The translations under genes and the position numbers were made by a program. A stretch of DNA of 64,000 nt from the NCBI GenBank assembly GCA_030390025.1, contig CM059432.1, forward strand, positions 58,158,001 to 58,222,000. Direction: 5' to 3'. Shown piece after piece: positions 11,700 to 53,242 of the stretch. The first letter of the stretch is position 1. Every line of letters begins with the position of its first letter. The DNA is from Squalus acanthias (lineage: Eukaryota). The notes beneath the pieces were generated by a model. The model had not been told where the DNA came from. It saw only the letters and a list, made by a program, of their open reading frames with translations, and did not search any database.

Positions 11700-12310
11700 A
11701 AAACATTGAGGTACGCAGATTGGGTGACCGCTTTGCGGAACACCTCCGTTCAGTCCGGAAGGGTGACCCCGAGCTTCCGGTCGCTTGTCATTTTAATTCA
11801 CCCCTCCACGCTCACTCAGACCTCACCGTCCTCGGCCTCTTGCATTGTTCCACGGAAGCGCAGCGTAAGCTCCAGGAACAGCACCTCATCTTCCGTTTAG
11901 GCACTTTACAGCCTTCCGGACTCAATATCGAGTTCAACAATTTCAGATCATAACCCCGGCCCCTACCACATATGTATACATTTTATCCACTCTTTTGGTC
12001 CGTGCCTTTTTCCTTTTTTTCTCTCTCTCCCCCCACGGCAGCTGTCTCTGATTCTGCCAGCATTTCACACCTTACCTTTTGTTTCTCAACCTGTCCCATT
12101 ACCATCTCATCTTGCCTTGAGCATCTCTCAATGTCTCTACTCACTAAAGACCATCCCTTTTGTTCTTTTATTCCTCCCCCCAGCCTCCCCCTTGCATTTT
12201 TATCTGTTTATTTCTTGCTCTCTCAGTTTCGACCTGAAACGTTAACTCTCTTTCTCTCTCCACGGATGTTGCCTGGCCTGCTGAGTTTTTCCAGCATTTT
12301 CTGTTGTTTT
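11700..12310 (+). mobile_element. Penelope-like element 3' fragment (GIY-YIG endonuclease C-terminus plus pLTR)
   Basis: ORF 11696-11953 RRLGDRFAEHLRSV...PVACHFN...EQHLIFRLGTLQPSGLN is typical of PLE GIY-YIG; downstream sequence is homologous to 54600-55100. Confidence 0.88.
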
Positions 12311-15120
12311 GACCCGTGGAGGTGGGTTTGGAGGCGTGTGGGGGGTTAAAATTGCGAAAACTGGCGGGTGGGCACAAGTCCGCCTCCATCCCGCCTCCAC
12401 GCAATTTTCATTAAATCGTGTCTGCTGGTCCCGACTCCGTCCCGCCTCTAAGAGGCAGGATAGGCTGTTAAGGCCCTTAACAAGCACTAAATTGCTTCTA
12501 TAATGCCATTTTGAAAGACCTTTGTGATTTTAACCCTTTTTCTACGTGAAGCACGCCTGTTCTGAACCACGAATGTGAAACCTGGCGGGAGCACATTTGG
12601 ATAGCTGACGCTGGCTGGCTATGGGGATGCATATATGGATAGCTATGTGGATGGATGTATATATGGATGGAGAGGAGACATATCTGGGAGTGGTGGTGTA
12701 AAAATATCTGGGAGCAGACTTCGGGCTGCTGCTGCTCATTTTGCATCCAGGTCCTCTCACAGCAAAGGCCAGGCAGTCTCTGAAGACCTTCAATGCAGCA
12801 GCAATGATGACATCATCAGAGGCGACTTTCAGACTGAAAATACTAATTGGTTCATGGGTTCCCACATGCTGGAACTCAATTGCCCAATTAGGTGAAAATT
12901 GCATCAATCTCCCACATCCAATTGCAGTCGGGTGGATAACACGAAAAGTGGATAACACGACCCCAACCCGCCCCAGTATCAAAATCCAGCCCAATGTGTA
13001 CATTGGAAAACCAGGACAGAACAATGCAGGAAACAATGAAACAAAAATCTGAGGGATCAGAACAGCTGGGGACATCTCTCTGACTCATTTATCAGATTGC
13101 TCTCCTTGCAGCAGTATGAGAACGCAATCTCACTTTAAGAGGTGCAGCTCCGCCTTAAATAGGCCTCAGCATGCCCACCAGAAACTGCGCCCATGAGGTG
13201 AGTGGGCTTGCCCGATTCCAGACATGATCGGGTGGGCAGCCCATCAATCATATTGAAATGAGACCTGGGAGTTAAAATCCCCTGGCTTCGCACTGGTGAT
13301 ATCATGTGCGGGCTTCCCACTCCCCCACTCCCTGATTCGCATCCCGAGTTAAAATCAGGGCTAATATATCTGTTTTATTTCCTTCTCATCTGTAAGAATA
13401 ATATTTATAGAATGTATTGTATTATGTTTCTAGTGCTTAACTTCAAAAAGAAATGGAAGATGGACAGCTGAACAGTACAGGCCCAATGTTTTTCCAGTGA
13501 TAAAATTATGAACAACATTAAGAACAGAAAGCAATTGAACAGTAATGTGAAGCAGTAACCATCCCCTTTAAAAATGAAAGCAGCTTGGTAACTATTTATT
13601 TACCATAATAAGTACGATACAGTCGATAGTTAAGATGTAGCTTTAAGACACCTATAATTCATGCCTGTCATTACAGTGGCTCCGCACTGTACAATACTCC
13701 TTGTTTCTCTGAATCCTGATGCAATCAACATTATCCATGCTTCCTGTCTATAACCATCATTATAGGTGGTACAGTAGAAGTAGGCCACCAGGCCACATCA
13801 TGCCATGTCCCACCATGCCATGCTACGACTCTTGAGAATTTATTGGGCAAACTAAAAATGTTAACGTACTGAACAAATGAATGTTGTACTAGATATTTTA
13901 TAAGCATGTTCACTGTTCTTGACTACTGAAGGCCATTTCCAGCCCATGCCTGAAGTCATCAGCCTTGATTCCGGACATTAATTTTCATCTCTGACTACTT
14001 CTGTTGTTTCCACCAGTCCTTAATAAAAATGTAGTTATTAATCCTTACAATTGTTTCTACTTCATAAAGTAATGTTTTAAAAGCTGCCAGTATATTCATA
14101 CCCCCCTCCTTGGTGTACTAGCATGTTTACATCAGGACTACTATGAAAGGTCATCAGAAGAACACTGAAATTATAATTTAATTGTCCATAAAATTCAATT
14201 CACATTGCCAGAAAATAGATTTATTTAGCTCTATGCTGCATAAAACTTCTATTCATATTGGCAGTGGCAATAACTCTAAGGAGGATAGCATTTTTATGTG
14301 CAGTCTACGGGCATGAATCTTGCTCCTTAGATATTCATCTGGCTCTGTGTTATTTATTATGGGGCAGCCCTTTCTTGTCCTCCATGTGCCACAAAGGGAT
14401 TTCCCACGGGGAATATCTCTGCTCTTTGAAAGAAGAGGACCAGTGCAGGGTAAACTACTGAAGGATGGAGAGATTTGGATTCAGATAAAGATATGGGCCA
14501 CGATTTTCCACCGTCATTGAAACCCGGCACATCTTCAGCACGGTGGGAGTTCCGTCCGGCATAAGGATGTGCTACTGATCCCATCTGATTTTCCAGGATC
14601 AGGGTGATTTATATTTTTGGGCAAGCTCCTCCGGCTTCACTGGGTGTCGACATGGAGAGGCAGCAGAGCAGTGTAGATGGCTCGCCTGTTTGATGACGCT
14701 CCTGGGAAGAGGCTTGGGATATTTTACTACATTGAATGCAGTATGGCCTAGAAATTTGAACCCTTAGCGCCGTCCATTAAGGCCGGTTCTGAAGAAAAAA
14801 TGGCGGCCGTCTTGCTTCCGCCGACTTCTGGCGTGGAATGCGAAAGCTGCCATATTGGGCAAGTCGGCAGCGCTGCTGTTGCCTGCGCTCGCTGCAAGTA
14901 TTTTAATTACCAGGAGCGTGACGGCAATTGCTGTGCAACGCTGAAATGACGCACACTCATCGATTTTGGACATCGCCGTTCCTCTTACCGTCCTTTCCAA
15001 AGCACGCCCGTGCGTGCAGCTGTTGACAGCGCGTAGAGCCGGGAGAAAGCGGCGGTGAGCTATAAATTGTACAGTAAACAGCTGCTGAGATAACTGGTAA
15101 CTATGGAGAGCTCAGACTAT

Positions 15121-15931
15121 GGGGGGAAATTTATCAATGGGGGCACGTTGGGGGCGGAACTGCTGGTTGTCAGGTTTCAGTCCCGCCCCCAACGACGTCT
15201 GGCCAACCCACGCTATTTTCCCTTGATTGACCTCGTTAGCAGGCCAATTAAGGGAAAGCCGGTGACAGAGAACGTCAGCGTATGACGTTTCATCTGTCAA
15301 AAATTTTTGACAGATGAATTGTCATCGTTTGACAGCTTTGAGAAGCTGTCAAACACTGACAATCTCTGTTCTTTGGTGAGTCCTTGTACTCAAGACTCAC
15401 CAAACCTCTTTCCTGAGCAGAAATCAGATGGCTGATGCATCGGAGAATGCAGCAGCCATTCTGTCATCTCTGTCGTGGAGATGAGGAGCCTCCAGATCCC
15501 CAACGGTTGAAGCCTGCAGGAAGAAACAAAGGTAAGTAAACTTTTTCTAACACTTTTCACTCACCTCACATACTTACCTCTCCACACTTGCACCCATCAC
15601 TCACCTCCACAGTGCACTTGTCGACCCCTCTCACCCTCGCAGACCCACTGCTCGCCTCGCTGACCCTGGCGGGGTTTCCCGATGTCGGGAAGCCCGCACT
15701 TGTGTTGGTAAAATGGGGATAAGCCTCTTAACTGTCTGTTAACTACCTGTTAACAGGCAGTTAAGTGGCTGTAATCCCCTTCCCGCCTCGAGGAGATGGG
15801 TCCCTGCGCGAGTCGGGAAGATGGCACGGAGGCGGGTCGGGAACAGGTTCGGTACCCGCTCCCAGTTTCTGCCATTTTTCCGGCAGTCCCGCCTCCAAAC
15901 CCACCTCCCCAGGGCTGGCAAAATTCCGCCC
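15121..15931 (+). mobile_element. Harbinger-type MITE with internal hairpin array
   Basis: TIRs GGGGGGAAATTTATCA / TGGCAAAATTCCGCCC, TAT target-site duplication (15118-15120, 15932-15934); second copy at 62258-62655. Confidence 0.85.
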
Positions 15932-16468
15932 TATGTAATTGGAATGAAAATTGCTTACATGAGATGCATCAAATCTCCCCCGGTCAGTCAAACATTACAG
16001 GTGGTAAATACTTTTAAAATAAACTATACTGTACTACAGTTGTAAGAATCTCAGGAAAAAAAATCAAAGCTGCATTTCCTTAAATTTTATACATTGTTTT
16101 TTCTAGTTTAGGAACTGATAAAATAATATGCAAAGTTTGGAAGTCTGTTTTTTAAGGCCAAGCATTAAGGAAAATTTAGCACCATATTCTCACCAAGAGT
16201 TCTTCAAATGTCTGTTGTTGCTAAAAATTTAATTGAACTTTCTTCTGCATGATTTACACCAGTGAACTCCTGACCAAGAGGTTCATATTTTCCTTTTAAA
16301 AATGCATTTCAATTCACATTTACCGCGCTACTTTTAAATAAGTTACACCCAAATAACTGACTTCAATTATCTTTCAGTTTATTGCAAAAATTCTTTAATA
16401 TGATCCAGATTGAGCTGGCTTTTTTTTCGTTGTTGCTTAATTTAATTTTTTTTGATCTTTTCATCAAG

Positions 16469-20340: not shown

Positions 20341-21081
20341 GGCCCAAAAATTAGTGAGGGAGCCTTCGTGCGGGGGTAAGGCTTCCCCGCGATATCTCAC
20401 TGCGCGCCGGCTTTTTCATTCCCAGCTCGCACGAACTTGATGTTCTAGACAGCAGCTGTGCAGTGTTTCCGTATCCCACAGGCGCAGTTAATTCGTGCGA
20501 GCTGTGGGATCACGTGATTCAGTTAGAGCCAATGGCAGCACACCATCTTTCATTCATAGTTTTCACATAAGTGCTGTGAAAGCTATGAATCTATACCCCC
20601 CCCAAAAGAACAGCTAAACCTCAATTAAATTAAAAAAAACCATCACATTAATAAAATAAGTATAGTTAAATAAATTAACCACTTTAAACAAAAAATTAAA
20701 TTTTTGAAAAAATTTAAAATCTTTTAAAAAGTTATAAAAATAAACTTACCTTTCTTTAAAGTCTCTAAAAAAGATATACCTGTTGAAAAAAATTCAAAAT
20801 AATACTTAATTAACTACTTACCTTGTTAAAAGAGGGTCTTACGCCTCCTTTCTTTATGTGCAAAATCTTCCATGCTTACCTGCGCGTTCAAAGCACTAAG
20901 TGCACTGCGTGCGCGCAGCCTGTAGCGCGCACGCGGCTCACTTAGGAACCGCCCCCTTTTGAAATCACCAAGTGCCGGTTTTAAGCGCATGCGCAGTGCA
21001 TGCAGAAAACCGGCAATTGGAGACAGAATACGCGAGAGTACACAGTGCATACTCTCGCGTAGAGGCACTAATTTTTGGGCC
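20341..21081. mobile_element. Harbinger-type MITE
   Basis: Perfect 16-bp TIRs GGCCCAAAAATTAGTG / CACTAATTTTTGGGCC, ATT duplicated on both sides; GC-rich ends and AT-rich core. Confidence 0.9.
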
Positions 21082-23170: not shown

Positions 23171-23548
23171 CCACCCCTTGAGTTTGTCTCTATCTATAAG
23201 TTTGTTTTGACCCACACAATGGTAGTCTGAAGAGTTAATTAGTTAATGAACTGGGAAGGTGGGTTAGTTCCTTGTAATACAAATTGTTTTGTGCTATTGC
23301 CTAAGATTATCCACATTGTTCCTCAGAACTAATTTGGGACGCCTTTCTGCTTAAAGTGTCATTATATTCAATTTTCTCAGCAGAGCACATAAAGAGCCAG
23401 ACTATATGAATCCTGCTGGTCACCGTTCAAAGAATAGGTACAGTCTGGGGTAGTTACTTGGGTTGAGAGTTTTTTCTGACGCGAAGGGGGCAGCGTCCTT
23501 GATTGGCTGAAGCTCTCTGTGATTAGAAGCTCAGCGGGCAGAGACTTC

Positions 23549-24179: not shown

Positions 24180-24588
24180 ATCTTATGGAACTCTATTATC
24201 AGTCTACAGACAGTCTTGAGAGAGAGCAGTTAGTGGGGGAAAAATCCGGTATCGACCATTTTGGGGCGCTAACATCGCCTGGGCGCTAACTTTAGCGCCC
24301 GCGCTAATTAGCGCGGCGACCGTGAAATTGAGTTTTAGCACCCCAAGAGGGAAGTGGAGCGCTAAATCAAGCACTACACACTTCTCTTAGGGCGCTAACG
24401 TCGGAGAGCGGGGCGCTACCTTCAGAGCGCTAATCAAGTTCCGGCGCTGTCAATTAGAGAGTCCTCAGACAGACTGGCGCCTTCCAGTTCTTAAAGGAGA
24501 GATTAGTCATGCTGCACAGCCTCACTCTGATCATAGCTGCTTGTCAACTGGGCCTGCAAGGAGCTGCAAGCCTTCACTCAAAGAAGTC

Positions 24589-26466
24589 ATGGCTGATCAG
24601 TGGCCCAGGGAGAGAGCTCAGCGACCAGGCATTGGAGGCTTTGGTCGCGGCTGTGGAACACCGATGGACAGTGCTGTTCACAGACACTGGCAGGAGGCCA
24701 TTGCCCTGGGAGTTCAGAAGCATGTGGAAGAAGGTGGCCCATTATGTCTCGGCCAGAAGCGTGGTCCACAGAACTCCCACCCAGTGCCGCAAGAAATTCA
24801 ATGACCTCACTCGATTGGTCAGGGTGAGTGTATGCTTCAAAAACCTCGACATCCCACCATCTCAACCTCACACTGTGTACACAGTATAAACCACCACATC
24901 CCCAATACTCACCCACCAACTATGCCCATCTACTAAACGTCACATCCATATCTCACGCCTTGCATACATTAAAAGCTATTCAACTATGGTAGGCACATCT
25001 GCCAAACACATAGCTGCACACTCACTCACACGCTTTCCTTTTTCTTGCAGGCCAAGCTTGCTCACAACAGGAGGGAGCAGCTATGAACGGGAGGAGGTGA
25101 GGTGGACCTGCACCCCCTTACAGACCTGGAGGAACGAGTGGGCCAAATCATTGGGGCCCAGGTCATGGGCGCTGTGGCCGTCGGAGACGTCGACCCCCTT
25201 GGGGACAATGGTATGTTCATCACCTCTCCCTCTTCTCTCATACCACTTCCCCCTCACAACACAAGCCCTTCCCACTTTCCATCTAAGTATACTGTCTCCA
25301 TTCCTTGCTCCCTTCCTGCCCCCCTCTCCTGACGTTAAACCCACTCTTGTGCCTATATGCTTTCAGATAATTAGCCACCATCTGATCAGCCTGTCCCTCA
25401 GCCTCCCTGTGGAAGCAACGCGGGAGAGGAGGAGGAACACCAAGCCGGAGCCCCACTGCCTGTGTCTCTTGAAGGTGCTAGGTCCAATAATGGAGCAACG
25501 CGCTCGCTGGAGGGGAGCCTAGTAGATGGGTCTGATGTGGGTGAAGCTCCGTGACCCAGCGGGCTGCAGCAGCGCCACGGGGAAGGGGAAGCTCAGGGGA
25601 CATCTCCCTGGAGGGTGAGTGCGCGCACGGGTTCTGCAGCACAGGACTCAGATGATGACGTCGATGTGGAGGCGTTGACCAGATACTGAGCTCATGGTGC
25701 AATGGCAAGGGTGCCCAAGAGCATGGATGCACTGGCAAGAAATGTGGAGGAGACCACCTCCAACATTGCACTCAGCTCTGCTCACACCATCGAGCCTATC
25801 CTTGGCAGTTTGCAAAGGATGGTCGACTTGCAGAGAGACCGTGGGGACCCAGACCTTCTGCCGCGTGTCATGGGTGAGGTGGCAGCAGCTATTGCAGCAC
25901 AGGTCGAGGCAACGCAATGGCTTAGTGCTGTAATGGAGTCAGTGGTTGCTGGCATGCAATCTCAGACTGGTCTCATGCAGTCTCAGATTGATGCCACGCA
26001 AGCGCTGACTGCTGCCATCTTTGCTGGGTCGCCCACTGTCTACTGGGGATCTCACGGTGCCACAGCAGGCCAGCAATCTGTGCTCGAGCAGATTGCTCCG
26101 GATGCTGAGGTTCTGCCCCGGGGGAGTGGCAGTGTGTCGGTCGAGCAGGAAAGTGCTGTCCTCTCTCAGGATGACAGCATTCCTGCTCCCACCACTGCCA
26201 CTCCGCCATTGCAGTTGCCGCAGCCTGTAACCCAGCCATCCCAGACTGCTGCCGCCCATGCTGAGGTGGTGCAGTCTGCAGCCGGGTCTTCCAGGCCCAG
26301 AGCTGGTCGAGGGCATCCTGCAGGGCCATCTGCAGTCTCTGGCTCCCAGACTCAGCAGCCTTCCATCAGCCTTGCTGCAGCCACTGGGGCCACATTACAG
26401 AGGAGTAGTAGGGTTGGCAGGGGGCAACTCAAAAGGGGAGGGAAATTATTGAAGAAGGGGGAGTAA
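24589..26466 (+). pseudogene. Harbinger Myb/SANT-like DNA-binding protein gene, 3 exons (24589-24823, 25051-25210, 25367-26466)
   Basis: ALEALVAAVEHRW..MWKKVA..RTPTQCRKKFNDL Myb/SANT motif; GT-AG introns; early frameshift, TGA at 25084 and further breaks in exon 3. Confidence 0.85.
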
Positions 26467-26494
26467 AGAATACTTTAGTAGCAAATGGGGGTAG

Positions 26495-26730
26495 TGTGTG
26501 TTAATAAATTGATGTGTTTGTAAATATATTGTTGTGTTTGTAAATATATTGTTGTGTTTGTAAATATATTGTGTTTGTGAACAAATAGTTATGCTTGTAA
26601 ATAAATATTTGTGTTTGGTAACAAATAATTCAGTTTGATAAGAAAGAGTTGTGTTTGTTGATAAATGGTTGTGTTTGTTTATGAATAGTTGTGTTTCATA
26701 AGAGAGAGTTGTGTTCGATAATAAATTGTT
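26495..26730. repeat. ~20-bp AT-rich tandem repeat (TGTGTTTGTAAATATATTGT-like)
   Basis: About 11 progressively diverging units between the convergent gene ends of the Harbinger. Confidence 0.8.
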
Positions 26731-26844
26731 AATTTGACATTGCACATTTTGTGATGTTTCTCTTTTGACCTTTGCCCAGTGATAAGGGCTGTGAGCTGGA
26801 TGTAATGATGTGTTTGTGCTGCGCAAACGCCATGTGCTATATCA

Positions 26845-27961
26845 TTGATTGGAAGCACTGTCTAATGAGGCGCTCATGCACAGCCCTTGCAGAAGCAAAA
26901 TTGAGTGCCTCCCTCCTCCGTTGCTGCTGCTCCTCCTCCTCTTCAGTGTCCTCCTCCGCTTCCTGCTCTCCCTTTTCCTCCTCCTGAGGTGGACCTGCAA
27001 TCCCTGGTGGCAATGGCTGGGCCTTGGAATGACCAGGTTGTGCAGCATGCAGCACACAACGATGAAAAGGGAGACTCGATCAGGGGAGTACTGCAGGGCT
27101 CCTCCAGAGTGGTTAAGGCAGCGGAAACGTTGCTTTAGCACCCCGATAGTGTGTTCGATCAGGTTCCTGGTGGCGCTATGGCTCTCATTGTATGCGTGCT
27201 GAGCAGGAGTGTTGGGGTTGCGGAGGGGTGTCATCAGCCAGGTGGCGAGTGGATAACCCTTGTCTCCAAACAGCCAGCCGTGAGTTTCATGTGGTGGATG
27301 CAACAGTGCTGGGACACCAGTCTATCGCAGGATGAATGCATCGTGGCTGCTGCCAGGATAGCGGGCATTGACGGCAAGGATAAGCTGTCTGTGGTCGCAC
27401 ACCAACTGCATATTCAGAGAGTGGTAACCTTTGCAGTTACGGAACACCTTTGCATTGTGATGAGGTGCCCACAATGCCACGTGGGTGCAGTCAATGGCGC
27501 CCTGAACCATGAGGAAGCCCGCTATCCTTGCAAAGCCTCATGAGCGTTCGTCCTGCTTCTCTCTGGTCATGGGGAATGAGATGTACTCCCTTCTCCTTCT
27601 GTAGAGAGCGTCTGTTCCCTCCCGGATGCAGCAATGGACGGCGAACTGCAAAATCTTTACAATATCCCCTGTTGAAGCCTGGAAGGATCCGCTGGCGTAG
27701 AAATTGCGAGCGACTGTGACCTTAACTGCCACTGAGAGACACGTCCTGGTCCTGAGCTGAGGCTGGAGCTCTGGCTGCAGGAGGTGGCAGAGCTCAGTGA
27801 CCACCTCCTTCTAAGGCACTGCTCCTCTGAGAGATGAATGTAGGAGAAGCGCTCCCGGAAAACCCTGGGAGGGTAAGGCCTCCTGTTGTGAGGTCGAGGC
27901 CCTCCTCCTACCTCTGGCCACATTGCCGGAGGGCAAGGTGGAGTGCCAGTACAGCCCCCAA
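26845..27961 (-). pseudogene. Harbinger DDE transposase (HARBI1-like nuclease), frameshifted
   Basis: GAIDCTH, YHSLNMQLVCDH, YPGSSHDAFIL, GDKGYPL and [15 protein letters not shown] spread over several frames. Confidence 0.92.
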
Positions 27962-28734
27962 AAATGAGAGAAAAGAGGACGTAGAAATGTTCAGAGCAAT
28001 ACAAGTGAAGAAACTGTTAGAGCAGCAACAAAGCAAAAATGGAGAAAATGTGAACGCAGCCAAAATGCTATCTGACAAGCCAGCACTGTATCTGACCTCC
28101 CAGTGAACTGATAAGTGATCCCTTTAAATAGTGCCCCGGGAGCGGCAATCCCAGGTATCAACGCCTGCTATTTCTGTTGTTCTCAGCGCCAGGCGGTAAG
28201 TCAGGGGAAGCGACTGAATTTTGTATCCAGGGCGCGAACAGGGTATTGCACACACTCATTGACGTCACGGTCTGAGCGGTGTTAGAGAGCCAGGCACTAA
28301 GTGTTAGCGCCAGCGCTAAATGCTGACTGGATTTTGCGGGCGGCGTTGGAATTGCCACGCCCTTAGCACCCCATTAGCGCCCCGCCCGGGTGCTAACAGG
28401 AGGCGCTAAAGTACTGAATTTCTAGCCCACTGAAACTCACAGCTGTCAACTGCGAGGCTGAGTGTACTAAGCCAGCTTAGCCAGGAGAGTTAAGCTAGAG
28501 GGAATTTACAGTAAGTGATGTTCTATTTAAAAGTCCGGTTGTTTTATATATTGAGGAGTATTGTATTCATAAACCATGTGATGTTTTTCACCCATCTTAC
28601 GTAAAAGAAAACACTTGTTGGTGCAAAGCAGGTGCCATTATTTCCTACATTACAACAGCGACTACACTTCAAAAGTACTTAATTGGCTGTAAAGTGCTTT
28701 GAGACTTCCTGAGGTCATGAAAGGTGTTATATAA

Positions 28735-29490: not shown

Positions 29491-31184
29491 AATGTTACTC
29501 TGTTAAGTTTCCTTTCTGTAGTATAAGCACATAAAATGTATTACTTTACATCACTTTCCCGTGTTATCCATTCTTGGTTGCTGGGTGGCAACTTGCCTTT
29601 AGAGTTGTTTGTTGATGAATGGGAAGACATGAATTGATGGGAACCAATGGGGGGATATGCAATGGATGGTTGCTTGGTTGCAGGACTGCTTTGTATCAGT
29701 GGAATTGGTGGTGGGGGGGGAATGAGATTTGCTGTTTGATGTGGTTGTAATATGGGTCTAGTGCTGGTAACTACTTGAACCTTACAACTATAAGGGAATC
29801 CCTGGCATCCCGGTTCTCTGTTACATTCCCCAGATCATGCTATCTATTACCTAGCTGTTGGGCAGTAAAAGGTGCACGTCAGGTCATAGGTTACAAAAAA
29901 ATCTGCGTATCGGAGTGGTTGGTGATGCTGAACCTGAGATAATATCAAAGATAATAACCCAAAAATATGATGTATGATGTAAAAAAGAAATAACTCGTAT
30001 TTATGTAGCACTTTTCACAGCTTAGGGATTTCCTAAAGTACTTCACAGCTAATAAATTAAATTTTAAGTGTATTACACTCCTATTGTTATAAAATAGTGG
30101 ATCCATGACTCACTGTGAGCAATGCCATGGGAGATCTGCTAATATATATTATCTTGCTTTATGTCATTATTCAAGGACCCATTATTGTCAACTGGTGAAA
30201 AGTGGATGATTACTACTAATAGTGACAGCTTGTTGGCTGTTACTAACATAGTATTTAACATAGTGCTCCACTTTGATCCATCAGATTCTTTACAATGATG
30301 TCTGCTTTGGACAAGTTCTATAAAAAATATTATGTTGTTCAATCTGTTTATTAAATGTAACATCATTCAGAAGTCCACAGCAGACCAGCTGCCCATTCCT
30401 TTATGGCTCATTGTACTGTGAAATGAGATGGTTTGTATAGATTAAGAATTTTTAGCTTACAAGACAGAAGGTCACTACAACAATACCTTACGAAATGTCT
30501 GCCCTGATATATTATCAGGACAAATGCAGCCCCTACCCACATATGGTATGAAATTTAGTCATCTGTGAAACAGTGGTGTGTTTTGGACAGGTGTTATTGG
30601 TGTCCCTTGGCTTTGTTCATGGACACATGACTGCCTTTTACAATGTCAGTGTTCAAAAATAAGTACTAACCTTTCAATATGAGCATCATAATGCAGAAAG
30701 ATCATGAATAAATCAGTCTGCGAAAGGTAGCCACTGGCTACAACACAACGGCTTAGAAATTCGCGGACTTGCTGCTCTCCGTTAAGGCTCGTTTCTGGGA
30801 AGAAAATGATGGCTGCCTCATTTCCGCCTGCCTCCAGAGCTGAACTCAGCGGCCGCCAATTTGGTAAAGGCCATAGCACTCCTGTTAGCAGCGCTGTCCC
30901 TAGAAACGCCATGCCTGCAAACTTCGCTGACTTTAATGCTGGGTCTGAAGCATGCTCAGAAAAGTGTGCATGCAGCAGACCTCGAGAAAGGCTGTCAGCG
31001 TTTCTTAAAGGGACACACACATCTTTCAGGTAAGTTTGGATTTAAGCTTTTGAACTGGGTTTTGTTTATTTTATTGAAGTAGAGGCTTGGTGCAATAGAT
31101 GTTAAAAGTTTTCAAAGTGTGCAGGGAGTGCTGCTGGACAAGATGTCTTGGATGGTAAAGGAAGGTCTCTGAGAAGACAGAACT

Positions 31185-31305
31185 TGCTGGAAATACTCAG
31201 CAGGTCAGGCAGCATCCGTGGAGAGAGAAACAGAGTTAACGTTTCAGGTCAAGATGCTGCCTGACCTGCTGAGTATTTCCAGCATTTTCTGCTTTTATTT
31301 CAGTT
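31185..31305. repeat. Penelope pLTR-derived inverted repeat (32-bp perfect arms)
   Basis: 31185-31216 is the exact reverse complement of 31253-31284; the sequence matches PLE pLTR ends at 54395-54460 and 55028-55075. Confidence 0.85.
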
Positions 31306-32250
31306 TTCCAGTATCAACTTGCAGAGGGAAGAGGAAACCGCAGAAGAGGAGGAAGCAGAAGAGGAGGAAGCGGAAGGAAGGATGCATCCCAGGCAGCCCC
31401 TTTCTGGCCAGGATATCCGGAATGGAATCATCTGCCTCCGCTGCCAGTGACCACAACCCCAATTCTCCTTTCAAAATTTGTCCCACACCTTACCTTCCCG
31501 CTGGTACTGACCATCACAGTGTCCTCTTGGCCACAATGCTGAAATAAAGCCACCACAAAGAAAACTTTTCAATCCAACTGTATACATCTATCCATCCAAT
31601 ATGACATCAAGAAATCAACTCATCACCCTTATGCATTCCCTTAGTGACTGTCTTTTGTGTGCCTTTGCCTATCCTACTGATGTCATGCAGTGCTACCCCA
31701 GTGGCTGCAACATGGTTGGTGGAAGGCTGCTGACTTTTAGTGGGGGACACTGCAGATGGCCTTGCAGGACGACCTTGAGGAGCTGGTGGCTGGGAGTGAG
31801 AAATCGAGTGACGGTGTTTCTTCCTCTTCTTCAGTCTCCTCTCCCTTTTCCTGGTCAACCACTGACTGGGCAGGCTGGATTTCTTGGGTGTGTGAAATGA
31901 GGAAGGCACAAGGGTGGAGTTGTGGTGAGGGGAGAGTGGGAAAGAAAGAGGTGCACGCGAGAAGGAGTATAACGTATGAGGATACCAGCATCTTGTATCC
32001 TTTCAGCTCCGCCACTGGCCAAGGACTCAGCCATGCCCCTGCCAAGAATGGCCAGCATTGTCCCCTCCAAGGGGATGAGGTGAAGCTAGGAATGTGAGGT
32101 GTGCCTCGTGTTTGGTACAGATTGTTGGTAGGTGAGTGATGGTGGGGGAGGAGGTCCTGCAATGAGCAGTGTGCGAGGCTAGTGGTGCAGTTGGTAGGAG
32201 ACGGCTTTTGAAGATGTATTCACTGGCCTTGACCAGTAGTCTGAGGTCAT

Positions 32251-34924
32251 AGATACATAGATACATAGAAGATAGGAGCAGGAGTAGGCCATCCGGCCCT
32301 TCGAGCCTGCTCCGCCATTTAATGAGATCATGGCTGATCCTCCAATTCAGTATCCCATCCCCGCCTTCTCTCCGTAACCCTTAACCCCTTTTGCCTGTAG
32401 AAATATATCTAATTCCCTCTTAAATGTATTTAATGAGCTGGCGTACACTGCCCTCTGTGGCAATGAGTTCCACAGGTTCACCACCCTCTGAGTGAAGAAA
32501 TTCCCCCTCATTTCTGTCCTAAATGGTTTAGCCCTTATCCTTAAATTATGTCCTCTAGTTCTGTTCTCACCCGCCAAGGGAAACATTCCTTCTGCATCTA
32601 GTCTGTCTAGACCTGTCAGAATTTTATACACTTCTATGAGGTCCCCTCTCAATCTTCTAAACTCCAGTGTGTACATCCCTAAACTACATAGTCTCTCCTC
32701 ATAGGTCAATCCCGCCATTCCTGGTATCAGCCTGGTGAATCGCCGCTGCACCCCCTCCATGGCAAGAACATCTTTCCTCAGATGAGGCGACCAAAACTGT
32801 ACACAGTACTCGAGGTGTGGTCTCACCAGTGCCCTGTACAGCTGCAGCAAGGTATCCCTGTTCCTGTATTCCAACCCTTTTGCTATGAAGGCCAGCATAC
32901 CGTTTGCCTTCTTGACCGCCTGTTGCACCTGCATGCTCGCCTTCAGTGACTGGTGTACAAGAACACCCAGGTCTCTCTGTACTTCCCCCTCTCCCAATTT
33001 ATTGCCATTTAAATAATAATTTGCCCTCCCGTTCCTGCACCCAAGGTGGATAACTTCGCACTTGTCCACATTATAGTGCATCTGCCATTTATCCGCCCAA
33101 TCACCCAGTCTGTCCAAATCGCTCTGGAGCTTCCTGGTCTCCTCCTCTGAGCCCACCCCCCCTCCTAGTTTAGTGTCATCTGCAAATTTGGAAATGCTGC
33201 ATCCGACTCCCTGATCCAGGTCATTAATGTAAATTGTGAACAGCTGGGGACCCAGGACAGATCCCTGTGGTACCCCACTTGTTACTGCCTGCCATTCAGA
33301 AAATGAGCCGTTTATTCCAACTCTCTGTTTTCTATCTGACAGCCAGTTCTCTATCCACGTCCATACTTTCCCCTTTATCCCATGAGCTTCAATTTTCCAT
33401 GCTAATCTTTTATGTGGGACCTTATCGAAGGCCTTTTGGAAGTCCAGGTACACCACATCTACTGGCTCTCCCCCATCTATTTTACCAGTTACTCCCTCAA
33501 AAAATTCCAATAGATTAGTCAAGCACGATTTACCCTTTGTAAATCCATGTTGACTCTGTCCTATCCTGTCCCCATTTGCTAAGTGCTCCGCTATTTCATC
33601 CTTAATGATGGACTCCAGCATTTTGCCCACAACTGATGTAAGGCTTACAGGTCTGTAATTACCTGCTTTTTCCCTACCCCCCTTTTTGAATAGTGGGGTA
33701 ACGTTAGCTACCCTCCAATCCATGGGCACTGTTCCCGAGTCTAATGAATTCTGAAAAATCATACTTAGTGCATCCGCTATCTCTAGGGCCACCTCCTTCA
33801 GTACCCTAGGATGCATGTTATCAGGCCCTGGGGATTTGTCCGCCTTCAATCCCTTTAGCTTCCTTAACACCATATCCTTAGAGATATTGATTTGCGTCAG
33901 TTCCTCCTTTGCCAATGTCCCTATTTTTCCCGATATCCCAGGGAGGTTTTTTGTGTCTTCCTTCGTAAAGACTGACCCAAAGTATGCATTTAGTTGGTCT
34001 GCCATTTCCTTATTTCCCGTTATATATTCCCCCGTATCTGACTGCAATGGACCAACTTTGGTTTTCACCAGTCTTTTCCTCTTGATATACTTATAAAAGC
34101 TTTTGGAGTTAGTTTTTATATTTTCCGCCAGCTTGCTTTCGTAAGCTATTTTGCCCCTCTTGATTAAGCCCTTTGTCCTCCTTTGCTCTATCTTAAACTG
34201 TTCCCAATCTTCCGCTCTGGCGATTTTTTTGGCTATTTTATACGCCCTATCTTTGGATTTTATGCTGTCTCTAATTTCCCCTGTTATCCACGGTTGAGTC
34301 ACCTTTTTAGATTTCCTTTTATGCCAGATTGGTATAAACAATTTTTGCAATTTTGTCATTCTATCTTTAAATGCTTGCCATTGTTTATCTACCTCCAGTC
34401 CTCCCAGGAACGTTGTCCAATCAGACCTACTCAGTTCCCGTCTAATGGCATCATAATTCCCCTTGTTTAAATTCAGGACCTTAGTCTCTGAGTCAATTTC
34501 TTCGCTCTCCATTTCGAGTGAGAAATCGATCATGTTATGATCGCTCTGACCCAAGGGTCCCCGTACAACAAGATTACTAATTAGTCCCTTCTCATTGCAC
34601 AGTACCCAGTCCAATATAGCCTGTTCCCGAGTTGGTTCCTCGACATATTGATCCAGATAACCATCCCTTAAACACTCAAGGAATTCCTCCTCCTCATTAT
34701 TTTTACTGATTAGGCTAGTCCAATCTATATGTAAGTTAAAGTCACCTATGATGACAGCTGTGCTCTTATTGCACGCTTCTCTAATTTCCCTCGTGATGCC
34801 CTCCCCAACCTCTATTTTACTATTTGGAGGCCTATATACCACTCCTATTAATGTTTTTCGCCCCTCGCTATTTCTTAGCTCCACCCATATAGATTCTGTA
34901 TTAACTGAGTTAATATCCTTCCTT
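32251..34924 (-). mobile_element. Young CR1 LINE, 5'-truncated within the APE domain
   Basis: Uninterrupted ORF2 frame; (CTATGTAT)n tail; TCAT repeated at both junctions (32247-32250, 34925-34928). Confidence 0.96.
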
Positions 34925-35094
34925 TCATGAAGCTTCTTTGGGCACTGGAGCCAGGTCGTGGGGGCGACACTTCTGGCAGTGACGGCCTCAGTGATCTGGT
35001 CCCACATCCTTCTTTCTGGAGGGCCTCCTGGCCCCTGTGGGTAGAGGACCTCTCTTGCAGTGTTGACCCCCTGCACAAAGCTGGAGTGCTGCAT
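32347..35094 (-). CDS. 915-aa open frame: ~56 aa Harbinger Myb/SANT fragment fused to CR1 ORF2 (partial APE plus complete RT)
   Basis: N-terminus VLYPQGPGGPP..MWDQITEAVTARSVAPTTWLQCPKKLH, then [37 protein letters not shown]. Expression unknown. Confidence 0.7.
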   Translation of the reverse strand: MQHSSFVQGVNTAREVLYPQGPGGPPERRMWDQITEAVTARSVAPTTWLQCPKKLHERKDINSVNTESIWVELRNSEGRKTLIGVVYRPPNSKIEVGEGITREIREACNKSTAVIIGDFNLHIDWTSLISKNNEEEEFLECLRDGYLDQYVEEPTREQAILDWVLCNEKGLISNLVVRGPLGQSDHNMIDFSLEMESEEIDSETKVLNLNKGNYDAIRRELSRSDWTTFLGGLEVDKQWQAFKDRMTKLQKLFIPIWHKRKSKKVTQPWITGEIRDSIKSKDRAYKIAKKIARAEDWEQFKIEQRRTKGLIKRGKIAYESKLAENIKTNSKSFYKYIKRKRLVKTKVGPLQSDTGEYITGNKEMADQLNAYFGSVFTKEDTKNLPGISGKIGTLAKEELTQINISKDMVLRKLKGLKADKSPGPDNMHPRVLKEVALEIADALSMIFQNSLDSGTVPMDWRVANVTPLFKKGGREKAGNYRPVSLTSVVGKMLESIIKDEIAEHLANGDRIGQSQHGFTKGKSCLTNLLEFFEGVTGKIDGGEPVDVVYLDFQKAFDKVPHKRLAWKIEAHGIKGKVWTWIENWLSDRKQRVGINGSFSEWQAVTSGVPQGSVLGPQLFTIYINDLDQGVGCSISKFADDTKLGGGVGSEEETRKLQSDLDRLGDWADKWQMHYNVDKCEVIHLGCRNGRANYYLNGNKLGEGEVQRDLGVLVHQSLKASMQVQQAVKKANGMLAFIAKGLEYRNRDTLLQLYRALVRPHLEYCVQFWSPHLRKDVLAMEGVQRRFTRLIPGMAGLTYEERLCSLGMYTLEFRRLRGDLIEVYKILTGLDRLDAEGMFPLAGENRTRGHNLRIRAKPFRTEMRGNFFTQRVVNLWNSLPQRAVYASSLNTFKRELDIFLQAKGVKGYGEKAGMGY

Positions 35095-36421
35095 GCGAGA
35101 CCCTGGATGCCCCTTCCCTGGCTTGTTGCGTCATTTGTGTTTGTGCTGAAGTACTTTTACCAGTTTTTTAGGTGCGGAAGGCAATTCAGCTTAAAAAGCT
35201 GAAGACTGCCATTTGAGAATTATTTTAAATGTTTATTTTTGTTTCAGAAGGCAGTTGAGCTGTAAGGGCTAAAAACTGCCTACTTTTTATTTTTTTTTTA
35301 TTTTAGAAGGCAGTTCCCCTTTAAGGGACATTGGGCCTCCTGCTGCCGGAAAAGAGTGTTGCACAGTAAGTTTAGCGCTGCGCTAATTTAAATTAGCAGG
35401 CAGCACCAAAATACCAGTGCTGCCTGCGCTATGAATTCAGATGGCCGTTAACTTCAACCCGCGGTAGCACCGGCAGGTTTTCGGCGTACTGGAATTTCTA
35501 GGCTAATATCTCAGTGACTGATGGTACAATGTCATTAAGAATCAGGAAGAAATTCCTCCCGCAAATTTTAGAAATTATCCTTTCCACGTGATGTTATCAC
35601 ATTTTAGGTCAGAGTAAATTAAAATGACATTATATAACGATGTGCTATGTCACTCCACAGTTAGGAATATATTCGTCCTGGCAGGTTTAGATACAGTTGT
35701 TACCATGTGATAACAAAGTGAATCTACTGCAAACTGCAATATCAAATTTTATTCAACCAACAAAACTATCTGTGCTTTATTTTTGTGTTGTTCTGCACTT
35801 TTATGAACAATTTCTGTAGGCTACCAGCAGATTGAAAATCCATTTATACATAGGAATATGAAATTAGCAGTGTAAGGATTGATATACAAAGCTGATGAAT
35901 TGAGAAATGTAAATGACAAAAACAAATGCCTGCAGTGGTCAAACTATAATGTTATTAGAACTGTGAATAGTTGTTACGAGTAGTTTTTAATCTAAATGCA
36001 AACTACTATGGTGTGAGTTATTTAAATAAACCAGAATATGGTGATATGCTGTGCTTGATTCACTGCGACTGTTAGAAATCTTTCTCTTCCCAAAGTAGTG
36101 AATGAAGCCCATTGGGCCTAAAATTTTAGTCTGGTGGAATTCCAGATTGAGGTGTGGAAAATAGGGCAGAATCCAGTTCCACTGGAATTCCACTCTGTTC
36201 CTTAAGCCCTACCTCTTTCCGGTGGGGGGAGATGTCATCTTTGGCCTGCCTCCCCTACGATTAAAGGCCATGTTTGGGGGAATTCCATCCATTCCACCTC
36301 AATAAGGTCTCTACGGTATACTCACAAGCTCAAAGCTAGTGAGAGTTATAGTGAAGCCTGTGGAAAGTCCCTAGAAGCTCTGCAAACAGAGGTAATAAAC
36401 CCCAGAGGGAATCATTTACCT

Positions 36422-38775: not shown

Positions 38776-41700
38776 CGGTAGTGTAGTGGTAATGTCACTG
38801 GGCTAGTAATCCAGAGGCCTGGACTAATGATCCAGAGACATGAGTTCAAATCCCACTACGTCAGCTGGGGAATTTAAATTCAGTTACAGGAAACTCTTGT
38901 TTAAACGGCACCTAAATATCCGGAATTCTCTAATAACCGGCAAAATTCATACTCCGAAAACAACACCTCAATAACCGGAAATGTTGCCGAGTCCGAGTCT
39001 CCCGCGGTGGCCGAGTTAGTCAGTGGGGGCTAGTGGAGGCCGTCAAACAGCCTCAGAGTGCGCAGAATCCCTCCCCTTTAACGGAAGGGGAGGGGTGATT
39101 AAACGCGTCAGCGCTATGTGGAGCGGCCGCGTAGTGCTCCGGCGCTACCGCGCTTTGCGCTCCAGACACCGCCCCGAGAGGAAGTGGACCGCACGAGATA
39201 GCGCTCCGCTTCCTCGCCGGAGCGGTAAGCCCAATTTAGCGGCCAAGGCGGTACTCCCGCGCTGGGCGCTAATTCGGTTACCGCTCCCAAACGGGGCATA
39301 ACCCTCAACTGGCAGTACTGTACTTAATCAAGCATCTTCCACCATCCATTTAACACAACATTCTGTAGGTGAGTACCCAATTATACTGCACATTTCTTTA
39401 TTTTTTTATTTTTGTTTGTTAAAAATAACCTCGGTAGATATACCTCTCCGTTATCCGGAATTTTTAATCAACCGGCACCATCCCGGTCCCGTCGGTGCCG
39501 GATACGAAAGAGTTTCCTGTAATTAAATAAATCTGGATTAAGAAAAGTTAGTATCAGTAATGGTAATCATGAAACTATCGGATTGTCGTAAAAACCCACC
39601 TGGTTCACTAATGCCCTTTAAGGAAGGAAATCTGCCGTCTTTACCTGGTCTGGCATATATGTGACTCCAGACCCACAGCAATGTGGTTGACTCTTAACTG
39701 CCCTCTGACATGGCACAGCAAGCCACTCAGTTGTAACAAACCGCTACGAAACAAAATAATAAGAAAGAAACCGGACGGACCAACCACCTGGCATCGACCT
39801 CGGCACCAGCTACGGACACGGCAACAGCACACCCAGCCCAGGCAACCCTGCAAAGTCCTCCTCACCAACATCTGGGGACATGCGCCAAAATTGGGAGAGC
39901 TGTCAAGCAACAGCCTGACATAGTCATACTCACAGAATCATACCTTTCAGCCAATGTCCCAAACTCCTCCATCACCATCCCTGGGTATGTCCTGTCCCAT
40001 CAGGGGTGGTGGCACAGTGATATACAGTCAGGACAGAGTGGCTCTGGGAGTCCTCAACATTGACACCGGACCTCATGGCTTCAGGTCAAGCATGGGCAAG
40101 GAAACCTCCTGCTGATTACCACCTACCGCCCTCCCTCAGCTGATGAATCTGTACATCACCATGTTGAACACCACTTGGAAGAAGCACTGAGAGTAGCAAG
40201 GGCACAGAATGTACTCTGGGTGGGGGACTTCAATGTCCATCACCAAGAGTGGCTCGGTAGCACCACTACTGACCGAGCTGGCTGAGTCCTGAAGGACATA
40301 ACTGCCAGTCTGGGCCTGCGACAGGTGGTGAGAGAATCAACACGAGGGGAAAAACCTACTTGACCTCGTCCTCACCAAACTACCGTCCTATGTCGCAGAT
40401 GCATCTGTCCATAACAGTATTGGTAGCAGTGACCACCGCACAGTCATTGTGGAGACAAAGTCCCATCTTCACACTGAGGACACCCTCCATCGTGTTGTGT
40501 GGCACTACCACCGTGCTAAATGGGATAGATTCAGAACAGATCTAGCAGCTCAAAACTGGGCATTCACGGGGAGCTGTGGGCCATCAGCAGCAGCAGAATT
40601 GTATTCCCCCACAATCTGTAACCTCATGGCCTGACATATCCCTCACTCTACCACTACCATCAAGCCAGGGGAGAAGCCCTGGTTCAATGAGGAGTGTAGA
40701 AGAGCATGCCAAGAGCAGCACCAGGCATACCTAAAAATGAGGTGCCAACCTGGGGAAGCTGCAACACAGGATGACATGCATGCTAAAAATCAGAAGCAGT
40801 ATGCTATAGACAGGGCTAAGAGATCCCACAATCAACGGATCAGATCAAAGCTTTGCAGTCCTGCCACATCCAGTTGTGAATGGTGGTGGACCATTAAACA
40901 ACTAATGGGAGGAGGAGGCTCCATGAATATCCCCATCCTCAATGATGGTGGAGCCCAGGATGTGAGTGCAAAAGACAAGGCTGAAGCGTTTGCAACCATC
41001 TTCAGCCAGAAGTGCCGAGTGGATGATCCATATCGGCCTCCTCCCGAGGTCCCCACCATCACTTCAGCCAATTCGATTCACTTCACGTGATATCAAGAAA
41101 CAGCTGAGCGCATTGGATACAGCAAAGGCTATGGGCCCTGACAACATCCCGGCTATCGTGCTGAAGACTTGTGCTCCAGAACTAGCTGCGCCTCTAGCTA
41201 AGCTGTTCCAGTACAGCTGCAACACTGGCATCTATCCGACAATGTGGAACACTGCCCAGGTATGTCCTGTCCACAAAAAGCAGGAAAAATCCAATCCAGC
41301 CAATTACCGCCCCATCAGTCTACTCTCAATCATCAGCAAAGTGATGGAAGGTGTCATCGACAGTACTATCAAGCGACACTTACTCACCTATAACCTGCTC
41401 ACTGATGCCCAGTTTGGGTTCCGCCAAGACCACTCTGCTCTGGTCCTCATTACAGCCTTGGTCCAAACATGGACAAAGGAGCTGAATTCCAGAGGTGAGA
41501 TGAGAGTGACTGCCCTTGACATCAAGGCAGCATTTGACCGAGTGTGGCATGAAGGAGCCCTAGTAAAACTGAAGTCAATGGGAATTGGGGGGAAAACTCT
41601 CCACTGGCTGGAGTCATACCTAGCACAAAGGAAGATGGTTGTGGTGATTGAAGGTCAATCATCACAGCCCCAGGACATCGCTGCAGGAATTCCTCAGGGC

Positions 41701-45100: not shown

Positions 45101-45333
45101 CTGCGAGGAGTCAGCAGCAGTGAAGGAGGCGGCAGAGGATAAAGAGCGCGGGAGGTGGAGGCAGCGGACCTGCGAGGAGTCAGGTGTAGCGGAAGAGGCG
45201 GCAGAGGATAAAGACCGCGGGAGGCGGAGGCAGCGGACCTGCGAGGAGTCAGGTGTAGCGGAGGAGGCGGCAGAGGATAAAGACCGCGGGAGGCGGAGGC
45301 AGCGGACCTGCGAGGAGTCAGGAAAAGCGGAGG
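45101..45333 (+). repeat. 69-bp GC-rich tandem repeat, ~3.3 copies, at the 5' end of a CR1
   Basis: CTGCGAGGAGTCAG recurs at 45101, 45170, 45239 and 45308. Confidence 0.92.
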
Positions 45334-46073
45334 AAACATACAAATCCAGAGAATTCCAAAAGAACAGCAAAAGCAAGGAATGACGTCACAGGACTGCAGG
45401 TACGTGATTGGTGGGTGAGTATTAGCGTTTTATTCTCTCTAACATAACTTAGATAAACTAATTAATATAACTATAAATAATCATGTGAATAAAGACTTTA
45501 ACTAAGAGAGTGAGAGAAACGGCTGGAGCTAAAGGTAGGCCCGATTTTTAAGATTCTTAGGGGGGAAAATTCAGTTGGTTAGCGCCTCCTGTTAGCACCT
45601 GGTGGGGACGCTAACGTGGATGCTAACAGGGCGCTGATGCAGTAGTTCCGGGGCGATGCAAATCCAGCGCCGCATGGCAAATCTGGCCCCTCCCGCTGTG
45701 CCGCCGCTACCAGTTAGCGCTGGGGACCTCACCGGTAGGCAGATCGTAGTGTCAGTGAGCGTGCAACACTCACTGGGTGCCCGATTTGCCAAATTCATTT
45801 TCGCCCTCGCCTTAGTGCCTCACCCCAATAGCAACAGGGATAAGAGGCGCCAAGCAGGCGGATGCTGGCTCCAGGGGCGGTATTTAAAGGCATCCTCCAT
45901 AATGAGTCGCTGCTCTCAGGTTAGTGCTGTTTCACTGCTTCCTTGTCAGTTTGACATTGTGCAAGTTTAATTCAGTCACTTAAAGGTTGTTTAGTATCAG
46001 GAGTGTTGTGGCTACTAACAATTAGTTACATTTATTCTCACAACATATCAAAGTGCTACACTTGGTTACATTA

Positions 46074-47223
46074 ATGGGGGCTGTACTGGCAGTGGACCTC
46101 GCCCTCCAGGATCTACGGCAGAGGGAGCGGAGGCAACGAGAACGATTGGAGCATGTGGCCAGCGGGAGGAGAAGGGCCATGAGGACTCTCAAAAGGAGGC
46201 CTTACCCTCCGAGGGTATCCGAGAGCACTTTTCCTACCTCCAATTAAGTGAGGAGCAGTGGATTAGAAGGCTCTGCTTCAGCAAGGAGTTAGTCACAGAA
46301 CTCTGCCACCTCCTGCAACCAGACCTTGAGCCTCATATCAGGGCGACCACGGCTCTCTCAGTGGCAGTCAAGGTCACCGTTGCCCTCAATTTCTTCGCCA
46401 GCGGATCCTTCCAGTCTGCAATAGGAGATATAGCTAACATCGCGCAGTTCGCCGTCCATCGCTGCATCTGGGAGGTGACAGAGGCTCTCTACAGTAGGAG
46501 AAGAGACTACATTTCCTTCCCCATCACCAGAGAGAAGCAGGACAAACGTGCATGTGGCTTTGCCAGGATAGCGGGCTTCCCCATGGTGCAGGGTGCCATT
46601 GAATGCACCCACGTTGCTTTGTGGGCACCGCATATCAATCCTGAGATCTTCCGTAACCACAAAGGCTACCACTCACTTAATGTGCAGTTGGTGTGTGACC
46701 ACACACTGCGAATCCTCACCGTCAATTCCCACTATCCTGGCAGCAGCCACGATGACTTCATCCTGCACTAGACCGGTGTGACAACACTCTTCCAGCCACC
46801 ACATCAAGCTCATGGCAGGCTGGCTCATGATTCCCCTCAGCAACCCCAACACTCCTGCCCAGCACTCCTATAATGAGAGCCATGCTGCCACCAGGAGTGC
46901 TCAAGCAATGGTTCCGCTGCCTTGACTGCTCGGGAGGAATCCTCCAGTACTAGGCAGTGCGGGTGTCCCATTTCGTGGTGGTCTGCTGCATGCTTCACAA
47001 CTTGGCCATCATGAGGGCCCAGCCCTTGCCACCAGGGATTGTGGGACCACCTCTGGAGGAGGAAGAGGTAGAGGAGGAGGAAGAGGAGGATGAGGAGGAG
47101 GAAGACGAAGATGAGGAGGACGAGGACGAGGAAGAGGAACAGAAGCGAGGGAGGAGGCAGCCACTCAATCGGCCTTTTGGAAGGTCGGTCCGTGACCGGC
47201 TCATCAGACTGTGGTTCGAATAA
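46074..47223 (+). pseudogene. Harbinger DDE transposase (HARBI1-like), disrupted
   Basis: GAIECTH, YHSLNVQLVCDH, YPGSSHD, CCMLHN, long poly-Glu/Asp tail; GDKGY region deleted; frameshift and stop. Confidence 0.92.
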
Positions 47224-47388
47224 ATTAAACCCCAGATCCCCGTTGCTCACCATATGTCCATCATTCCATTCCTGTCGCAGGCCATATCACAGCGCAAAGC
47301 TGAAATGAGAGAGATCACAAAATAATCCAAACTGAATTAATAAATTTATCAATAATCAGTGAAAACATATTTACAACAAAAATATTAA

Positions 47389-52652: not shown

Positions 52653-53242
52653 GGGGGAAAAATTGGGTTGCTTTGCGCCTCCCGTCAGTGCCCCGCTTGC
52701 GCCCCAGCCACAAACTTGCCTTGTGCCCCCTGACCTATTGCCGAACCATATGTCCGACCGGTTTGGGGGGAGGGGGTCGTTTTGGCAGCAGCGACGACGC
52801 AAATTAAAGGGCAGGTGCCGGGCGGCCATTTTTCTTTTGGCCGACTGCCAGCACCTGCTCCTTCTTACCTCTATATGCGAGGTTCTGGCCGCGATCGCGC
52901 AGCCCGGCATGCCTCTTGAGTGCCGGGCTGTTTTCCCAGCATCCCGCTCCCCGGTGGTCCAGCAGGGCCCCGGTGCGTGCAGCGCTAGGCCCCTCCCCTT
53001 TAACCGGGGGAGGAGGCCTGCAATGACGCGGCGCTATGTGCCGCTGCACGTGGCGCTGTTGCACGTAGCACCGTGAAATTCACTGGTAGCGCCTCAGGAA
53101 GGAGGGGGAGCGTTTTTCAGTAGCGCCCCGCCTCCTGCTTCCGGCGCTACTACTGAATTTACGGCGCAGGGGCACTAACTTTTATGGTTAGCGCCCCAGT
53201 GACATTTGCACCCCAAAGGGGATGCCACTGAATTTTTTCCCC
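52653..53242. mobile_element. CpG-rich Harbinger MITE
   Basis: TIRs GGGGGAAAAATTGGGT / ACTGAATTTTTTCCCC, TAT TSD, many GCGCTA/TAGCGC motifs. Confidence 0.88.

Follow-up and report, generated by a model that had tools for sequence, protein, structure and literature searches.

Our analysis of a 64,000-nucleotide stretch of Squalus acanthias DNA (the window) identifies an element of an ordinary kind with an unusual interior. The preliminary description had called 15145–15485 part of a MITE family; the evidence supports this and assigns the whole element at 15121–15931 more precisely to the non-autonomous PIF/Harbinger elements (a Tourist-like MITE), and the hairpin array that occupies the left 40% of its 811 bp (15145–15485, 341 nt) is far beyond chance. 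The hairpins look like a feature of the DNA rather than a hidden RNA gene. The element, its flanking duplications and its second copy are as follows.

15121–15931 (no strand assigned): whole non-autonomous Harbinger-type element, copy 1, 811 bp (contig depth limits, element-skipping joints, no long open reading frame)
15118–15120 (plus): left target-site duplication, TAT (empty-site joints 15118–15934 and 15121–15959)
15932–15934 (plus): right target-site duplication, TAT (flank comparison and skipping contigs)
15121–15164 (plus): left imperfect terminal inverted repeat of about 45 bp, with a G-rich end and a subterminal GGAGGCGGG-type motif (aligned to the reverse complement of the right end)
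15883–15931 (minus): right imperfect terminal inverted repeat (alignment with the left end)
62258–62654 (plus): copy 2, of which only the left part is present, with 85% identity across 389 columns (copy alignment)

Inverted ends, a TAT duplication, empty sites and abundance together bear out the claim that this is a MITE. The inverted ends of copy 1, about 45 bp long and imperfect, start with a run of G and then AATT or ATTT, and 15883–15898 is the perfect 16-bp inverse of 62285–62300 in copy 2. Contigs from both sequencing runs X1 and X2 jump over the element (joints 15118–15934 and 15121–15959) with one triplet left, which confirms a duplication of 3 bp, as in PIF/Harbinger elements; repeats also cover the flanks of copy 1, and the empty sites may therefore be paralogous. 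Those flanks (14745–15120 and 15935–15981) attract many contigs and have Harbinger-like ends close by, and the MITE has therefore probably inserted into an older repeat. The target duplication usual for this superfamily is TWA according to the available text of PMC13668399, whereas copy 1 has TAT; since matching flanking triplets were found at three of six other elements checked (TTA, TAT and ATT), the duplication consensus is loose in this genome.

No open reading frame of at least 120 aa overlaps 15121–15931, and the element is short, non-coding and high-copy. Its family is very abundant: 15,570 contigs from run X1 and 36,117 from run X2 align to 15040–16020, figures that measure abundance and not copy number, summed contig depth drops some 100-fold beyond 15931 and also steeply ahead of 15139, and the stretch or part of it occurs in at least 20 sequencing-run records under six organism codes. 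None of the records listed is of RNA, which speaks neither for nor against transcription. Within the 64-kb window, a profile built from copies 1 and 2 found no third copy, and copy 2 is cut off at 62655 by the (CATAAGAA)n tail of a CR1-type LINE. Pattern scans gave no match in viral contigs and none in prokaryote genomes; two matches in metagenome contigs, of 25–29 nt each, were set aside as chance, and a regular-expression list of termini proved too loose for use by itself. The duplication and the inverted termini do not fit a Helitron or other HUH rolling-circle element, which lacks both and has a single, subterminal hairpin.

Two decayed two-gene elements, neither assigned to a strand, lie in the same window.

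45560–49189: two-gene Harbinger element with convergent DDE_Tnp_4 and Myb_DNA-bind_5 genes, decayed, with a TTA duplication and similar G-rich termini (Pfam)
24235–28428: second decayed two-gene Harbinger element, its termini likewise similar (Pfam, motif list)

The first shares with copy 1 the terminal pattern of a G run and AATT, and is of the kind that would mobilise the MITE without being its direct parent; no internal homology was found between the MITE and the window's two-gene elements. These two elements are oppositely oriented and carry arrays of GCGCTAA-type motifs at their ends, the left end of 24235–28428 holding eight GCGCTAA motifs, some in each orientation, which fold into short hairpins. 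Pfam matches were obtained in five of the seven window proteins scanned, four of them to DDE_Tnp_4 or Myb_DNA-bind_5, and the first 43 of 53 transposase homologues are annotated in sharks (Pristiophorus, Heptranchias and Heterodontus).

Several further features accompany them. A Harbinger MITE at 52653–53242, with a TAT duplication, shares a GGCGCTA motif with the two-gene elements and is likely a derivative; GC-rich hairpins similar to its own are carried by an element at 38886–39520, which has different, TA-flanked inverted ends and is possibly a captured or nested piece. A tandem repeat of about 69 bp, in at least three units (45101–45334), adjoins the Harbinger end at 45560. Inverted ends of about 206 bp at 54380–55076 and 31174–31315 have a Penelope-type or fold-back look, with further pieces of the same element at 11834–12308. 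A 927-aa CR1-type LINE frame with endonuclease and reverse transcriptase domains occupies 32347–35130 on the minus strand, and AG/GT-bounded open frames at 23381–23445 and 55640–55702 are possible plus-strand exons of a host gene.

The seven inverted repeats reported for the array are present in both copies where they had been placed, including the 30-bp perfect palindrome c, identical at 15289–15318 and 62445–62474. They tile 15146–15484, and hairpins then resume in the right half of the element (none is assigned to a strand).

15146–15194: hairpin a, 17 bp, formed by the subterminal CCCGCC motif as an inverted pair, with double change 15152/15188 (hairpin count, motif list)
15217–15257: hairpin b, 17 bp, with an inward TTAAGGG box at 15248 (hairpin count)
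15265–15369: outer stem around c and d, a three-way (T) or four-way junction in a CTGTCA-rich module (partition-function folds)
15289–15318: hairpin c, perfect 30-bp palindrome, no spacer (copy comparison)
15327–15354: hairpin d, 11–12 bp, variable loop (copy comparison, family variants)
15372–15404: hairpin e, 11 bp, with double change 15376/15400 (copy comparison)
15428–15459: hairpin f, 13 bp, with a single mismatch or wobble, at 15435/15452 (hairpin count, variants)
15464–15484: hairpin g, 6–7 bp, variable loop (copy comparison, family variants)
15722–15770: right-half hairpin, 22 bp, with an inward TTAAGAGG box (hairpin count)
15779–15820: right-half hairpin, 12 bp, on a CCCGCC motif (hairpin count, motif list)

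Copy 1 contains six gap-free Watson–Crick hairpins in 341 nt against a mean of 0.03 and a maximum of 1 in 30 shuffles, and copy 2 contains six in 397 nt against a shuffle mean of 0.10. None of 100 shuffles was as stable as the fold of 15145–15485 on either strand (−167.8 kcal/mol, z −12.6 on the plus strand; −174.8 kcal/mol, z −13.75 on the minus strand). Moderate z values are common here, since 48 of the 426 windows of a sliding fold scan fell below −2.5, the lowest (−13.5) being copy 2. The loop of b in copy 2 has an extra 19 nt forming its own 9-bp hairpin (62374–62394) that is missing from copy 1, and b and the 22-bp right-half hairpin, both of which contain a box, are loosely alike. The loop of d does vary, as had been described, but the difference is not confined to it, for the loop-closing pair changes too.

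The T-shaped three-way junction proposed for the c–d module stands in part. It is favoured in 13–14 of 20 partition-function folds (13 T against 7 four-way by higher probability), but a four-way isomer, to which the same TGAC motifs lend themselves by alternative pairing, competes with it and is preferred whenever copy 1 is folded as DNA (six folds) and, by a small margin, in the 341-nt plus-strand RNA fold of that copy. Contig depth over c–d is about ten times that over e–g, contigs also carry deletions of 31–72 nt across c–d, and traces of the module (six partial reads) occur in run X21 from a further species.

The hairpins are accompanied by recurring short motifs and by what may be promoter remains. 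CCCGCC occurs five times, at both element ends, against 0.4 expected and is a candidate site for a Myb-like protein; TGACA occurs nine times, all in the left half, against 1.9 expected; and the four copies of CTGTCAAA, which read forward, reverse, reverse and forward in turn, make up the cores of c and d. Recurring motifs of the element thus underlie hairpins a, c and d. An inward promoter-like box, presumably TATA-like, lies at 15248 (plus) and at 15731 (minus), and six donor-like GGT(A/G)AGT sites stand against 0.34 expected from the window rate. The putative exon ends are as follows:

15529–15537 (plus): splice-donor-like site past the left box, a putative first-exon end (donor pattern)
15557–15607 (minus): three splice-donor-like sites, a putative remnant of the opposite gene's first-exon end (donor pattern)

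This layout would be that of the fused ends of a convergent two-gene parent, each end with promoter, first exon and donor. The hairpins are not a mere by-product of the motif array, a possibility refuted by block shuffles that kept the motifs: these gave 0.4 hairpins (maximum 2–3) against the six observed, and none of 300 runs reached six. Only 29 of 98 stem pairs fall within recurring motifs, and hairpins b, e and f contain no such pair. Symmetry outside the motifs is produced or maintained by some process.

Terminal-repeat elements tend to contain internal palindromes, and the family of copy 1 is the extreme case of this in the window. Its array, at 1.76 hairpins per 100 nt, is the densest of 23 stretches tested; among 15 other terminal-repeat stretches one has six hairpins, one has three, eight have one or two and five have none, whereas four LINE controls of 801 nt each yielded a single hairpin in 3,204 nt. 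The three hairpins of an autonomous end partly overlap and are made of its own motif. The stretch with six is an unrelated MITE at 20341–21081, with 14-bp inverted ends, an ATT duplication and two minus-strand donor-like sites.

Both strands of the array fold equally well, so that it looks like a DNA-level structure and not an RNA gene. The two-copy consensus energy is −142.8 kcal/mol on the plus and −142.9 on the minus strand, and the individual preferences are opposite, copy 1 folding better on the minus strand and copy 2 on the plus strand. No Rfam family matched at gathering score in the window, where four weak matches to miRNA models scored 19–25 bits, below cut-offs of 56–99. The structured RNA that had been suggested thus finds no support in Rfam, in the strand-equal consensus energy or in RNA reads, of which no ends pile up inside the array. 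The G-U strand asymmetry expected to tell RNA from DNA comes down to five against two wobbles in equal folds, from few data.

The paired G-C to A-T changes described in a (15152/15188) and e (15376/15400) are real, and those at 15152 and 15188 are both common family variants. Besides its double change, stem a has four one-sided differences. When 14 random changes were dropped on the stems in simulation, two or more double-changed pairs arose in 950 of 100,000 runs (P ~0.01), a figure that is optimistic because the stems were defined on the same two full sequences that were compared. The two double changes stand among 120 consensus pairs in two sequences only, and the family variant tables are unphased. 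Of the 106 stem pairs that copy 1 defines, ten differ in just one partner and one more holds a gap; the ten comprise five plus-strand wobbles, two minus-strand wobbles and three mismatches, a bias that is not significant. Nor do changes by kind, scaled to base counts, show a strand bias.

That stems are more constrained than loops is borne out only to a degree. Between the copies, 14 of 210 stem bases differ against 17 of 129 other bases, a lower divergence of weak significance (Fisher P=0.052). Similarly, 17 array variants among the 40 listed of 417 place three in stem cores against 7.1 expected (P=0.03), two of the three being the matched pair 15152 and 15188; the listed variants are selected and unphased, and flipped read placement on palindromes can add loop variants. 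A modest constraint on stems is therefore plausible and not proven.

Tentatively, and with a little less than half of our belief, we suggest that the palindromes belong to the DNA level: inverted protein-binding motifs, in what remains of a promoter and first exon, would have seeded them, and template switching would have made and repaired them as copies amplified. The MITE would depend for its movement on a Myb-like protein and a DDE transposase acting in trans, and would have kept both ends of its parent, with subterminal motifs, inward promoter-like box, splice donors and a first exon. Where short protein-binding motifs lay as inverted pairs, quasi-palindromes would arise; during master-copy replication and excision-gap repair via single-stranded DNA, a template switch would then copy arm onto arm, lengthening stems, making paired changes in one step and sometimes deleting a hairpin. 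Excision-gap repair exposes single strands and readily undergoes such switches. The array would have arisen in DNA through repeated rounds of copying, as a strand-symmetric product whose influence on mobility is weak at most. Of the options raised in the preliminary description, the one in which intrastrand repair keeps the palindromes symmetric is, in this template-switch form, the one we favour, albeit at the same not quite even confidence.

Several observations argue for template switching. It is able to create stems and paired changes in one step, as the available sections of PMC8794818 describe, and the array has strand-symmetric folding, two double changes and a spacerless palindrome c, a form that an RNA stem-loop does not need. 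The absence of the inner hairpin of b from copy 1 and the 31–72-nt deletions across c–d are expected if hairpins form in replicating DNA. Ten of the 15 other terminal-repeat stretches bear hairpins, whereas the LINE controls are nearly free of them; conversely, with only two of those 15 reaching at least three hairpins, a general mutational process leaves the extremity of this family unexplained. The nested outer stem needs more than local copying of arms, and the lower divergence of stems fits selection equally well. Loop inversion between copies, a footprint of template switching, was not seen by eye in a, d or g, and it is for this reason that the template-switch step is one we infer.

A smaller but real share of our belief goes to selection, in which the palindromes would be dyad double-stranded sites for the Myb-like protein, the transposase or host promoter factors, dimeric binding accounting for dyad symmetry. 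CCCGCC at both ends and the mixed orientation of the four CTGTCAAA copies are in keeping with such sites, as are the motif arrays of another family, in both orientations, in the window's two-gene elements; TGACAG is the TALE-homeodomain site. A precedent is the Myb-like protein of Harbinger3_DR, which binds a subterminal 9-bp motif according to the available text of PMC9710019. The arms of 11–17 bp are, however, long for Myb/SANT domains, which read about 6–8 bases in the sections of PMC9921582 at hand, and neither the small share of stem pairs lying in motifs nor the motif-block shuffles agree with binding sites as the whole explanation. Seeding by binding sites, as in the template-switch reading, and selection of dyad sites are compatible rather than exclusive.

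We regard it as rather unlikely that hairpins c–g are RNA structure inherited from the untranslated first exon of the parent, where they would damp translation or splicing. They do lie between the TTAAGGG box at 15248 and the plus-strand donor at 15529 in an element with six donor-like sites, and among the one-sided changes plus-strand wobbles outnumber minus-strand ones by 5 to 2; but hairpins a and b are upstream of or on the box, and the lack of an Rfam family and of any strand preference in folding speaks against an RNA. About a quarter of the RNA run X23 was read, in which small RNAs would be missed. Reads occur in both orientations all along the element, and first mates lean minus over most of 15139–15633, except the c–d module, and plus over most of 15634–15930, a pattern that would fit inward transcription from both ends, the library strandedness not being recorded. 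Set against this, none of the three X23 pile-ups (15134, 15699 and 15927) is in the array, no joint among those listed has X23 support, and most reads come from relatives (4,602 of the 6,775 placed are under 90% alike).

It is improbable, in our judgement, that the array is a functional cruciform or folded single-strand DNA, selected for its structure, that raises MITE amplification, for instance through an influence on gap repair or on assembly of the transposition complex. Densely tiled, strand-symmetric stems with a nested junction would suit such a role, as would the scarcity of listed common variants in stem cores, the tenfold depth of c–d and its traces in a further species. But five of the 15 other stretches, Harbinger MITEs, lack a strong hairpin, deletions run through the c–d module, the geometry of the junction as DNA differs between copies, and the 17 variants are the selected and flip-prone subset described above. 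We give equally little credence to the broader proposition of a vertebrate MITE with tiled hairpins and a switchable three-/four-way junction that is selected as sequence-independent structure and amplified via a single-stranded or cruciform intermediate.

MITEs are more numerous than their autonomous parents, and their internal sequence is known to influence mobility. Tens of thousands of pieces with many stems offer a natural test of whether paired changes arise by selection or by template switching. If mutation alone suffices, paired changes in repeats are no proof of a functional RNA; if instead the structure is selected, it would be a new cis-element of DNA transposition.

Adeno-associated viruses and parvoviruses have T-shaped terminal hairpins, in which two arms are closed by an outer stem; unlike these ends, the junction here is internal, has a four-way isomer, and belongs to an element that is flanked by a target duplication and lacks a replication gene. 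The array resembles template-switch hairpins, as far as the available parts of PMC8794818, PMC5453318 and PMC3820800 describe them, in its perfect stems, strand symmetry and paired changes that need no selection on RNA; those parts deal with RNA genes and individual loci rather than with a family of transposons, and no loop inversion was seen here. A 2022 survey reported no Harbinger in the elephant shark and asked for tests in other cartilaginous fish, according to the accessible text of PMC9179366, in contrast to which the window is rich in Harbinger elements. Our search of literature outside subscription journals and supplements found no description of shark Harbinger MITEs or of such an array; the family may already be catalogued in Dfam or Repbase.

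Tourist-like MITEs such as mPing are, in the available text of PMC2836001 and PMC9921582, likewise short, non-coding and high-copy, with inverted termini and a 3-bp duplication, and mPing depends on two protein partners and can owe part of its mobility to internal sequence. Unlike mPing, as those excerpts present it, the present element is longer (811 bp), has TAT rather than TWA, and contains tiled internal hairpins and splice-donor-like sites; the same excerpts report no comparable hairpin array for mPing. The preliminary statement that cut-and-paste transposition needs only termini was too strong, as internal sequence alters mPing mobility in the sections of PMC9921582 consulted. This effect and the subterminal binding in Harbinger3_DR imply that the termini alone are not the whole story.

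Zebrafish Harbinger3_DR and Harbinger3N_DR, for which Sinzelle et al. 2008 is said to be the source study, provide the closing comparison. They are served by Myb-like and DDE proteins and have repeated subterminal motifs, as given in the available portions of PMC9710019, PMC3016246 and PMC2836001, and similar two-gene elements are present in the window. Unlike Harbinger3_DR as those portions describe it, the element studied here has a CCCGCC-type motif that is no more than a candidate site, and its stems extend well past the motifs.
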